A stretch of 64,000 nt of DNA from Escherichia coli (GTDB lineage: Bacteria > Pseudomonadota > Gammaproteobacteria > Enterobacterales > Enterobacteriaceae). The position numbers and the translations under genes are program-made. The stretch lies in the NCBI RefSeq assembly GCF_009931435.1, contig NZ_CP043414.1. One strand, given 5' to 3'. The first letter of the stretch is position 1. Each line of letters opens with the position of its first letter. The notes beneath the pieces were generated by a model. That model was given only the letters and a program-made list of their open reading frames with translations. It did no database searches and was not told where the DNA came from. Below, piece by piece: positions 54,841 to 58,525 of the stretch.

Positions 54841-56169
54841 TTACTGCCAGCTAATCTGCGCCCTGCCGTTTTTCTTACTCTTATACAGCCGCTCATCCGC
54901 CAGCATTTTCAAACGTTCAACGGTGGTACATTCATTTGAATGCGCTACGCCGATACTGGTGCTCAAGTTAATACTCCCCACCTGGAAATGGACGATTTCT
55001 TTTAGAATCGATAGCAACTCCTCCAGCGTTCCGCCAGTATAAATCACCGCAAATTCGTCACCGCCGAAGCGGTAGACTTTACCTTTATCTACCGGGATCT
55101 GTGATTTAAGGATTTTCACCACTTTCATCAACACTTCATCGCCCAGCAAATGACCGAAGGTGTCGTTAATGTTTTTGAATTTATCGACATCAAAAAGACA
55201 CAGATAGCCCCCTTTTTCCGGCAGGGCTTTTAAATCTTCATCAAAGGATTTTCTGCCCATTGCTTTGGTCAGGTCGTCCAGAAACGCCGAGTTATACATA
55301 CTGTAGAGTTTTTTGACATCGGCAGCCGAGAAGAAAAGCCCACCGTCCAGGACGCGTTCAAAATGGTTATTAATAATGGCTTCTTTCTCCACAATGCCAC
55401 GATTAATCACTCTGCGCACCAGATAAAGGCAGCTAGCACCCGATATCACTGCCACCAATGCAGCAAAGAAAATAATCAACATACATACCTGAAAATAAAC
55501 GTCTTTTTTATACGAAAATACGTACAATCCGGTCGGCAAATAGGCGAAGTGCTCCATTGCTTCCGAAACGGTGAAGATGGCGTTTTTAGCATTATATTCA
55601 TCACCGGTCACCGGTTTACCGTTCTTAAACAGAGAGAACATCAGGTTCTCGCTATCCATCGCCAGCGATTTTGACAGTAAAGAAAAACGCTCCAGACCAA
55701 GCAAAAATATCAGACTGCGATTGTGAGTTACCGGATAGAGGTAATAGACGAAGGTTTTACCGTCAAAAGAGATAAACCCTGTATTTTTGACATGTCGATA
55801 CTTAACAACCTGCATAATATCTGCACAATAATTTTTCTCGAACTCCTTTACCTGAATACATTCGTCACTGGAAATCAGATAAGGACCGACATCGTACAAA
55901 TAAGAGGGTGAAACCGAGTCGGCGTAAGCTGTGCGCAAGCCAACCAACAGCTGTTCCTCCGTGGGATTTAGCGTGTTGATGAGATCAATTGCCACGCTAC
56001 GCCGATATTCAGCAATATTTGCCACCGCAAAAGCAGTATCAATAACGGACTGTTTCAGGCCATACACCCGTTCCTTTACCATTTGAGTGTAGATCCCGCA
56101 GGCAACTGCTGAAATCATGATAAAAATCAGCAGACTGACTGTAAGTACGAACTTATTGATTCTGGACAT
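54841..56169 (-). CDS. dgcI: membrane diguanylate cyclase DgcI (YliF)
   Basis: 442 aa; N-terminal TM/periplasmic region and C-terminal GGDEF motif (RFGGDEFAV). Confidence 0.85.
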
Positions 56170-56176
56170 ACGTAAA

Positions 56177-58525
56177 CTACTCTTTTACTAATTTTCCACT
56201 TTTATCCCAGGCGGAGAACGGCATGGGTTTCTGGTACAGATACCCCTGAGCCTGAACACATCCTAATTTGATTAATTCGCGCGCAACGTCTTCGCTCTCT
56301 ACGCCTTCCGCAATCACCGGGATCCGGTTATAGCGTGCCAGATCGAAAATAATGCGCACAATTTTTCCCGCAGTACCGAAAATATCGCCGGTAAATTGTG
56401 AGTCCACTTTTATGCTATCTGGATTAATTTCATAAAAACGTTTCAGGTTTGACAAACCGGTGCCAAAGTCATCAATCGATATCCGTACCCCTTGTTTACG
56501 CAGTTGTTCAATATTGAGATAAAAATGTTCATTAATTCGCTCGATCACAGTTTCAGTGATCTCAACACAGAGGCTGTTCGCCTTCAGGCCATTTTCTTTC
56601 ATGATGGTGGTAAAACGCTCATGAAAGTGTGGTTCGTTTAACTGCCAGGGCGAAACATTAATATGCAGTAAGAAACCGTCCTTCAGCGACGCACGCTGAC
56701 TAAAATGTCTAAATTCACCCATTGCCGTTTTAATAATCTGATAACCCAGCTCATTGATAAACCCGATATCTTCAGCAATGGTAATGAACTTCAGCGGTGA
56801 AATGATCCCCCGCTCCGCAGACACCCAACGGCACAACGCCTCCGCGCCCAGAATGGCGCGGGTGTTAATATCAACGATCGGTTGATAGACCAGGAATAGT
56901 TCGCCAATTTCCATTGCATGGCGAATATTACGCGCAATCCAAATATTCTCTTCTATTTCGTTGAGTTTCGCGTCATCACAGAAAATAAACTCTGAGAACA
57001 TATGGTCACGGATGCTGGAAATCGCCAGTTTCAGTTTTTCTGCGTAACTCCAGGCGTTTTCTCCCTGCAAAGGTTCACAAATAGCAGACTTATGGATGCG
57101 CAGATTGCGGTAGCCAAAGCTGCTGTCAAAATCGTTTATCGTCGCTATCTTACGGGTAAACGTCTGGACATTTTCCCGGCACAGGAGTAAATAAAGATCG
57201 GCATTGAATGTCACGATATCGCAGCATTGTGCATATTTCTCGGCAATTCGCTGACACAGTTTTCTGACGATTTTATTACGCTCATCGACACCAAACACCG
57301 CTTCAACGGCTTCCAGGCCACACAGTTTGATGATCCCCACAGCCAGATACTGATTATTGTTGGACTCAATAATCGCCATATTTTTAATAAAACCGCTTTC
57401 TTGATCGTAAGAGATCAGCGAGAGCAATTTATTCGAACGTTCAATTTCGGCATCTTTCATTTCCGCGATCGAATTTTTGATGCTGATAATCTCTTTCGCA
57501 TCGCCTTCGCGAATTTTCAGAGCCTCGATTTGATCCGTTGAGTCGGGCAAAAATGCCAGCGTATTAACCAGCTCGGTCATTTCAGAAAATTGCCGACGGA
57601 ACACACGAGTGGTCATTAAATAAACCACCAGCAATACGATAATAATGAAAGCAAACGGCAGATAAAAAAGTTTATCTGATGCGTTCAATAAATTACCGCC
57701 AGGATAATAAAAATAGATTTCGAATAATGCGTTGTTTGGCACCGCTGATGTTTTTTCGATATATTCAGTATCGACAGAATCAATAATATTATAATTGCCT
57801 TCGCTATTATAAATAATCAGTTTTTCACGAGCGAGTTGATTCTTGGCAATGATCTCATGGCCTTGTTTCAAAAATAGAACTTCATCATTAGCGCTGATTT
57901 GATCAAGATACTCGTTCAGATATCGCCAGTTTAAATCGACATGAATTTTATCCACCACTAACAAATCGTGATCTTTGCCGTTGATGCGTAGCGTAAAAGA
58001 GATACATTTTTTACCCGGACGATCAAAGCAATTGTATGCCGGATTCCAGCTGTTGTTAGAGTCATCTGAAGCCACAGACCACGGTCGTTTCGATGGGTTA
58101 AAATCGGCAAAAATAACCCGCCCTGACTCGTCGACAAGCGGTCCATTTAATTGTTCCTGATGATAAACAACGATTTTATCATTTGCCCTCCGCGAAAAGA
58201 GATAATATTTATTATCATCAAGTACCAGTCCCACCGAGTCTAAAAATGGCATCATTTCCATTTTAAGGATCACAGCGCGTTGAATCTCCTCTGTATTTTT
58301 TAATAAATACAGTGAGTCCTTTAATGTCAGGGCCGAACGTTCAATATCTTTAAAGAAATAGCCAACGTTTTTCTGAATAAGTTCAAAGCGGCTATCGGCA
58401 CGTTTTACCGCGCGTTCCGATACCAGTTGATAGTTAATGATGAAAAAAAGGCCAATAAATGACAGTGCTGCCAATAAAAATAAAATTATCAGCCTTATCT
58501 TTATCTTTTCGTATAAACTCAGCAT
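56177..58525 (-). CDS. pdeI: membrane c-di-GMP phosphodiesterase PdeI (YliE)
   Basis: 782-aa product from ATG 58525 ([17 protein letters not shown]...); C-terminal EAL motif (GAEALCRW). Confidence 0.85.

Follow-up and report, generated by a model that had tools for sequence, protein, structure and literature searches.

The window analysed here is a stretch of 64,000 nucleotides (nt) of Escherichia coli DNA (contig NZ_CP043414.1 of assembly GCF_009931435.1), and the region of interest within it carries the adjacent genes pdeI (yliE) and dgcI (yliF) for a membrane-bound phosphodiesterase (PdeI) and a membrane-bound diguanylate cyclase (DgcI) of cyclic di-GMP (c-di-GMP). The reading preferred here, at a probability of roughly 80%, is that the region is the chromosomal pdeI-dgcI operon of E. 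coli, with co-transcription, two-input switching and a horizontal origin as its proposed properties. Both genes are already known: they have been named, annotated and covered by systematic surveys of GGDEF/EAL proteins, and the catalogue of E. coli genes gains nothing here. What interest remains lies on the comparative side, and what is new is modest: the operon anatomy, the low-GC island, the purifying selection, the recurring plasmid cassette, the narrow family and the sensor models.

PdeI is identical to its K-12 counterpart at 776 of 782 positions and DgcI at 436 of 442 (99% for both), with the same lengths, and none of the six substitutions in each protein hits a catalytic position. These matches uphold the names dgcI and pdeI that a first-pass annotation, made from the DNA sequence alone, had given to two consecutive genes on one strand. 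The two open reading frames (ORFs) do lie side by side on the minus strand, but the direction of transcription had to be corrected to pdeI first and dgcI second. From gsiC to yliI the DNA is collinear with that of K-12 MG1655 at 95-99.7% ungapped identity and has the same 7-nt spacing between the two genes and the same neighbours (gsiABCD upstream; rimO, bssR and yliI downstream). At the locus itself the DNA identity to K-12 is 96-98%, and the window therefore holds the yliE-yliF locus of a non-K-12 E. coli lineage, on the opposite strand. A megablast search with positions 54000-59500 matched 5425 of 5426 complete E. coli genomes, with at least 80% of the query covered in 5389; only 11 of the 5425 matched at 99% or more. 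RefSeq names the genes in the matched genomes pdeI and dgcI, between gsiD and rimO. An earlier start of pdeI at TTG 58603 (an ORF of 808 amino acids, 56177-58603) was rejected because ATG 58525 fits the start annotated in K-12, with the alignment of the proteins beginning at residue 1.

The locus has the sequence features of a single operon, with a short gap between genes on the same strand and neither a promoter-like nor a terminator-like site found at the junction by scans (the promoter scan being at chance level overall). The 7-nt spacing is identical in K-12, Escherichia whittamii and Escherichia albertii, and a weak Shine-Dalgarno-like stretch (AAGAG) before dgcI overlaps the 3' end of pdeI. 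In the 177-nt spacer between gsiD and pdeI (38% GC) lies a candidate sigma-70 promoter, TTGTAA-16-TAGAAT, from which we infer that the operon is transcribed. E. coli, E. whittamii and E. albertii share its -10 hexamer, its -35 hexamer has one change (in E. albertii), and the leader downstream is variable. Between the convergent genes dgcI and rimO a hairpin folds at -24.4 kcal/mol (z=-3.8), a value equalled by 0 of 200 shuffles. The hairpin is likely to be a bidirectional terminator but has no U-tract on either strand. The 7-nt gap, the single conserved promoter upstream and the hairpin downstream therefore point strongly to co-transcription, and judged from sequence the pair is almost certainly an operon that is inherited as a unit. 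Published mRNA levels fit co-transcription, short of proof: those of pdeI and dgcI are both raised at 37°C in strain CFT073 (PMC12890032), and both are raised by BolA (yliE 3.4-fold and yliF 2.0-fold, PMC5605933).

The leader of pdeI (58526-58612) is rich in A and T, and a recognisable Shine-Dalgarno sequence is missing in front of the ATG (…GTTAAATGTATTAACATG), which may contribute to the very low expression in K-12. The final 30 nt or so of the leader are conserved across Escherichia species and the middle is variable. Just upstream of the candidate -35 hexamer is a conserved stretch, GGAAATTATTGCC-TAAGCAAGTG, which includes TTGC-N5-GCAA (58650-58680, minus strand) and is kept in E. coli, E. 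whittamii and E. albertii. It forms no inverted repeat at the thresholds of the repeat finder and could be a candidate binding site for a regulator. The whole gsiD-pdeI spacer is without inverted repeats at these thresholds, and comparison of the leader and the junction with Rfam yielded no more than a U6 match below threshold (E=0.63), so that an RNA element in either place was rejected.

The intact GGDEF and EAL motifs reported by the first-pass annotation (RFGGDEFAV and GAEALCRW) proved to belong to complete catalytic domains. In DgcI the GGDEF domain scores 89.3 bits against Pfam PF00990 (cut-off 23.8) and 91.6 bits against TIGR00254 (cut-off 37.4), far above chance, with RFGGDEFAV at residues 367-375 and GGDEF itself at 369-373 (codons 55051-55065). 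Alignment to structures shows that the metal- and GTP-binding residues match those of the solved cyclases DgcZ/YdeH, DosC and PleD. The residues D327, D329, K332, N335, D336, H340, D344, R367, GGDEF 369-373, K432 and R436 are invariant in DgcI homologues of 33-41% identity. The RxxD inhibitory site (I-site) is missing in DgcI, where VDKG occupies its position. This site, five residues upstream of GGDEF, occurs in many diguanylate cyclases but not in all. With VDKG in place of RxxD, DgcI probably escapes inhibition by its product; Spurbeck et al. also classed the I-site of YliF as non-consensus. K-12 DgcI raises the signal of a c-di-GMP biosensor and the substitution D371A abolishes the rise (PMC11757272). 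Shigella DgcI gave the highest c-di-GMP level among four intact cyclases in liquid chromatography-tandem mass spectrometry, and a GG-to-AA change abolished the synthesis (PMC11327459). Synthesis by the allele in the window is expected from its near-identity to these K-12 and Shigella proteins. A common natural DgcI allele of 399 amino acids (protein cluster P0004, 1305 member sequences) stops after residue 395 or so and lacks the last 45 or so residues of the GGDEF domain. Several further clusters of shortened DgcI exist, some of which may be fragments at contig ends.

The EAL domain of PdeI scores 233.7 bits against Pfam PF00563 (cut-off 31.3). Within GAEALCRW the residues EAL are numbers 562-564 (codons 56834-56842), and the protein carries both EALxR and the loop 6 motif DDFGTG. 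All catalytic residues match those of solved enzymes, including TBD1265 (2r6o) and PA0575 (5m3c), and the full set of catalytic and metal-binding residues is present: E562, R566, N623, E655, E658, D685, D686, K706, E740, E743 and Q760 are invariant in PdeI homologues of 29-37% identity. Spurbeck et al. listed YliE as full consensus. Degenerate catalytic residues would have spoken against the first-pass annotation; since the residues of both domains, aligned in full, are intact and invariant in homologues of 29-41% identity, this objection falls away. Overexpression of PdeI gives resistance to phage N4, as does that of six other phosphodiesterases (PMC7553319), and suppressor mutations in pdeI restore the motility of a pdeH deletion strain (as cited in PMC12890032). 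A literature search found no published in vitro assay of c-di-GMP hydrolysis by PdeI, and upon overexpression the protein behaves like an active phosphodiesterase. The suggestion that one protein makes and the other breaks c-di-GMP is thus supported by the intact residues together with the published data on synthesis by DgcI and overexpression of PdeI.

PdeI has a further domain that was absent from the first-pass annotation. It lies after the second membrane segment and before the EAL domain, and has NADLY at the position of GGDEF. NCBIfam models of GGDEF-EAL proteins (GepA, DosP) align across residues 380-530 approximately, and in hhalign this middle domain is in register with the GGDEF domain of DgcI (FNADLY opposite FGGDEF), although weakly (E=0.17). 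Pfam gave no match here even at E<=10, and with these values proof of GGDEF identity at the sequence level fails. The predicted structure is more informative. The AlphaFold model of PdeI has a mean predicted local distance difference test score (pLDDT) of 73, with 58-71 in the middle domain, which is modelled in the order of the GGDEF fold, beta-alpha-alpha-beta-beta-alpha-beta-alpha. In Foldseek the model aligns over 390-450 columns to the tandem GGDEF-EAL structures 5m3c, 4rnh and 3pjw, exceeding the EAL domain alone by about 150-200 columns. On the strength of the model the middle domain is accepted as a degenerate, presumably non-catalytic GGDEF-like domain, in agreement with the annotation 'xGGDEF' in a preprint from the Romling laboratory (bioRxiv 10.1101/2025.05.09.653004).

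A membrane or periplasmic region at the N-terminus of each protein had also been noticed, and hydropathy agrees: two hydrophobic segments flank each sensor (approximately residues 10-32 and 287-306 in PdeI, and 7-28 and 227-249 in DgcI), which therefore should form a periplasmic loop in both. The order of elements in PdeI is a first membrane segment, the periplasmic CHASE9 domain and a second alpha/beta module, a second membrane segment, a linker helix, the degenerate GGDEF-like domain and the EAL domain. In DgcI it is a first membrane segment, the periplasmic GAPES2 domain, a second membrane segment and the GGDEF domain. GAPES2 of DgcI is modelled as a double-Cache (tandem PAS) fold, in which a long helix at the N-terminus leads into two PAS-like alpha/beta modules, all between the two membrane helices. 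The sensor in the full-length model of PdeI (pLDDT 70-90) has a long stalk helix and then two alpha/beta modules, and in these models the two sensors thus have their elements in the same order. W160, C166 and C174 of the PdeI sensor and C104 and C115 of the DgcI sensor are invariant in the respective homologues. The cysteine pairs C166/C174 (about 58004-58030 in the window) and C104/C115 (about 55825-55860) are retained down to 24-30% identity, and by analogy with the CSS-domain phosphodiesterases they could be a redox switch, or else structural disulfides.

Table 1. Features of the pdeI-dgcI locus, with positions in the window.
Feature	Position	Strand	Basis
pdeI (yliE, b0833 orthologue), 782 amino acids	56177..58525	-	ORF, K-12 match, Pfam, RefSeq annotation of best-matching genomes
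dgcI (yliF, b0834 orthologue), 442 amino acids	54841..56169	-	ORF, K-12 match, Pfam
Candidate sigma-70 promoter (TTGTAA, 16 nt, TAGAAT), some 90 nt before the ATG of pdeI	58612..58639	-	consensus scan, cross-species conservation
7-nt spacer TTTACGT, from the pdeI stop TAG to the dgcI ATG	56170..56176	-	sequence
12-bp GC-rich hairpin between convergent dgcI and rimO	54801..54830	.	sequence, RNA folding
Periplasmic sensor region of PdeI, residues ~33-286	57668..58429	-	Pfam CHASE9, hydropathy, model, invariant columns
CHASE9 of PdeI, residues 35-150	58076-58423	-	Pfam E=1.5e-62
Degenerate GGDEF-like domain of PdeI, residues ~392-503	57017..57352	-	NCBIfam, AlphaFold model, Foldseek
EAL phosphodiesterase domain of PdeI, residues 532-767	56225..56932	-	Pfam PF00563 E=2.5e-69
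Periplasmic GAPES2 sensor of DgcI, residues 26-229	55483..56094	-	Pfam E=4.6e-141
GGDEF diguanylate cyclase domain of DgcI, residues 295-437	54859..55287	-	Pfam PF00990 E=2.9e-25

The two genes form an island of low GC content, 41.5% in pdeI and 43.8% in dgcI compared with about 52% in the flanking gsiD and rimO. In comparison with K-12 the ratio of non-synonymous to synonymous substitution rates (dN/dS) is 0.034 for pdeI and 0.036 for dgcI, and 0.071 for gsiD. By this measure both genes are under strong purifying selection, comparable to that on the neighbouring genes, despite the very low expression in K-12 under standard conditions. In the draft assembly of E. albertii NBRC 107761 (L007, 6001-6240 and 9671-10384) pdeI has a frameshift after codon 27 or so, a sign of either a pseudogene or an error in the sequence. 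The same strain has an additional ORF of 237 amino acids on the opposite strand between dgcI and rimO, a slot that is empty in E. coli.

Searches with tblastn against plasmids rendered DgcI homologues in 110 records and homologues of the PdeI N-terminus in 76 (at E-value limits of 1e-20 and 1e-10, respectively), counts that include a few large misassigned chromosomal fragments. The PdeI homologue directly precedes the DgcI homologue in three divergent plasmid lineages (L002, L003 and L004), with identities of 41, 38 and 33% for DgcI and 37, 34 and 29% for PdeI. Their junctions are an 11-nt overlap, a 9-nt gap and a 4-nt overlap. The L002 cassette (plasmid NZ_CP058713) adjoins bcsA-bcsB-bcsC, the L003 cassette is found on a Salmonella plasmid beside sugar-utilisation genes and the L004 cassette (plasmid NZ_CP079766) lies beside insertion sequence (IS) elements. 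A further contig, L008, is of the L002 lineage and has the pair with a 23-nt overlap. The PdeI and DgcI families rank alike in their pairwise identities, and the one solo DgcI homologue that was inspected is cut by IS1, which removed the upstream gene too. The retained pair, the co-varying identities and the IS1-cut solo copy give good support to the joint inheritance of pdeI and dgcI.

Pairs of yliE and yliF homologues beside accessory cellulose clusters (bcsA2-4) of plasmids have been described before (bioRxiv 10.1101/2025.05.09.653004). They share with the E. coli pair the gene order, the domain architectures, the invariant catalytic residues and the near-touching or overlapping reading frames. 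They differ in sequence (29-41% identity) and in context, being found on IncHI1B, IncF and related plasmids next to bcsABC, sugar-utilisation genes or IS. Unlike the bcs-linked plasmid pairs, the chromosomal pair has no adjacent gene for a c-di-GMP effector. On NZ_CP058713 a group II intron reverse transcriptase/maturase gene (ltrA; L002, 16216-17562) lies between bcsB and bcsC, just downstream of the PdeI/DgcI-like pair. The PdeI homologue of NZ_CP079766 (L004, 6677-8989) has tandem tripeptide repeats, NSINSINSINSINSINS, in the CHASE9 region, which correspond to a 9-nt tandem repeat within the sensor domain of this variant.

The family as a whole is narrow. Among 100,044 species genomes (one for each species), a profile of the first 530 residues of PdeI was found only in E. 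whittamii, E. coli, E. albertii and L008, in a scan that used two peptide patterns and could have missed divergent relatives. An exhaustive search of 1.84 billion representative proteins with a hidden Markov model gave 61 matches, mostly fragments. A word-indexed protein search with the N-terminus of DgcI gave only close Escherichia relatives and many fragments; the distant plasmid homologues were recovered by tblastn, not by the word-indexed search. With so few matches in the species-genome and protein scans, the family thus is essentially confined to Escherichia and its plasmids. L008 (DYWT01000146.1) is a 5.6-kb contig from a chicken-gut metagenome, labelled as a metagenome-assembled genome of Sporosarcina psychrophila. 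Its DgcI homologue starts like that of the E. coli plasmid NZ_CP058713, and the contig has almost certainly been mis-binned into a Firmicute genome.

According to the preferred reading, a single mRNA would run from the conserved promoter in front of pdeI to the hairpin that precedes rimO. PdeI and DgcI would each have a Cache-type sensor that switches the enzyme in response to a periplasmic ligand of its own, and the cassette would move c-di-GMP up or down according to these two external inputs. Horizontal transfer would have brought it in, probably as a helper of an exopolysaccharide system that depends on c-di-GMP, such as the bcs clusters on plasmids. A more speculative extension, which we regard as doubtful, is that PdeI and DgcI form a heteromeric membrane complex that sets the c-di-GMP level. 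The two sensors would integrate two periplasmic signals into one local output, with the cysteine pairs possibly adding redox control. Such a self-contained cassette would travel on plasmids together with c-di-GMP-dependent exopolysaccharide operons and, on one occasion, would have become domesticated in the chromosome of Escherichia.

The arrangement has parallels in E. coli. Genes for a diguanylate cyclase and a phosphodiesterase are also found side by side in the dosC-dosP (dgcO-pdeO) operon. DosC and DosP are co-transcribed and form a complex. They are cytoplasmic haem-based oxygen sensors with the cyclase gene first, whereas PdeI and DgcI sit in the membrane, have periplasmic Cache-type sensors and are encoded with the phosphodiesterase first; a complex between them is hypothetical. 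With DgcM-PdeR (curli) and DgcC-PdeK (cellulose synthase) the pair shares the idea of two antagonists directed at one specific target (PMC5635695). What makes those pairs local modules is that interaction of the proteins and target specificity have been demonstrated, in contrast to the putative module PdeI-DgcI. The pdeI-dgcI pair is among the least understood c-di-GMP modules of E. coli. The conservation of a horizontally mobile cassette, with phosphodiesterase before cyclase and two different Cache-type sensors and under purifying selection, is a reason to study both genes together, and to do so at 37°C instead of under standard biofilm conditions.

The first-pass annotation had further proposed a locally coupled signalling module. 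At the level of transcription and inheritance this is supported by the 7-nt gap, the one promoter, the one hairpin, the conserved cassette and the parallel movement of the mRNAs. Physical or functional coupling would go further and is weakened by protein levels that are uncoupled, by single mutants whose phenotypes are not mirror images and by sensors with unrelated sequences. A coupled module is a reasonable hypothesis, which rests only on conserved gene order and co-regulation.

The points that weigh against the preferred reading concern transcription, the relation between the two proteins and the role of catalysis. The sigma-70 consensus scan found 9 sites against 9.3 expected, that is, chance level. 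An in vitro RpoN-binding peak from gSELEX (genomic systematic evolution of ligands by exponential enrichment) has been reported within yliE, upstream of yliF. However, an internal sigma-54 promoter of dgcI was rejected because in pattern searches every GG-N10-GC site within pdeI had five mismatches or more. The single site with two mismatches falls in the leader of pdeI and shows no conservation in other Escherichia species, and matches to the sigma-54 pattern across the window are fewer than expected by chance.

The relation between the two proteins bears on the alternative that PdeI and DgcI are mere neighbours, with independent inputs to the global c-di-GMP pool or with unrelated targets, so that adjacency means shared transcription and nothing else. 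DgcI is one of four GGDEF/EAL proteins that were undetectable in K-12 and PdeI is not on that list (PMC5635695), and the protein levels in K-12 are therefore not strictly coupled. In CFT073 deletion of yliF raises adherence, and yliE is missing from the mutants for which a change in motility or adherence was reported (Spurbeck et al.). The sensor sequences have no detectable similarity (hhalign E=0.63 over 13 columns), on which ground a homology of the sensors, with one signal and opposite outputs, was rejected. A literature search found no published interaction or epistasis of PdeI and DgcI. The alternative is nevertheless somewhat unlikely, as the order and tight spacing are kept in lineages that are only 29-41% identical and in very different contexts, the divergence of the two families co-varies and the one solo copy inspected is an IS1 truncation. 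Both mRNAs also shift in the same way with temperature and with BolA.

The role of catalysis is questioned by the catalytically dead Shigella DgcI (GG-to-AA), which still reduces invasion and plaque size (PMC11327459), so that part of the role of DgcI may be non-enzymatic. It could then be suggested that DgcI is largely a non-catalytic scaffold or trigger and that the pair is not primarily a couple for synthesis and degradation. The deletion of dgcI has a complex and partly inverse effect on curli expression in E. coli, and the adherence of the CFT073 mutant went up and not down. Overexpression of DgcI is toxic, and in a two-hybrid survey toxicity was seen in the higher-copy vector, without data from a vector swap (PMC5635695). 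The synthesis half of the pair is probably inactive in strains with the 399-amino-acid allele, judging from the part of the domain that is lost. A largely non-catalytic DgcI remains unlikely when all catalytic residues are invariant across homologues of 33-41% identity, purifying selection is strong and GGDEF-dependent synthesis of c-di-GMP has been shown by two laboratories.

That the island is a silenced and functionally irrelevant remnant of horizontal transfer, as the low GC, the very low or undetectable K-12 expression, the lack of an obvious Shine-Dalgarno sequence before the pdeI ATG, the truncated dgcI alleles and the frameshifted pdeI of the E. albertii assembly might suggest, is highly improbable, since the locus is retained in all but one of the complete E. 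coli genomes, both genes have a dN/dS of about 0.035, comparable to neighbouring housekeeping genes, expression is induced at 37°C and mutants have phenotypes in adherence and in biofilm colonisation resistance.

Regarding the latter phenotype, yliE contributes to the resistance of commensal biofilms to colonisation in vitro. The biofilm regulator gene bssR (yliH) lies two genes from the pdeI-dgcI pair (52873-53289, minus strand), and its DNA is 99.7% identical to that of K-12, the highest conservation among the genes of the neighbourhood. In the colonisation-resistance study bssR and yliE were induced together.

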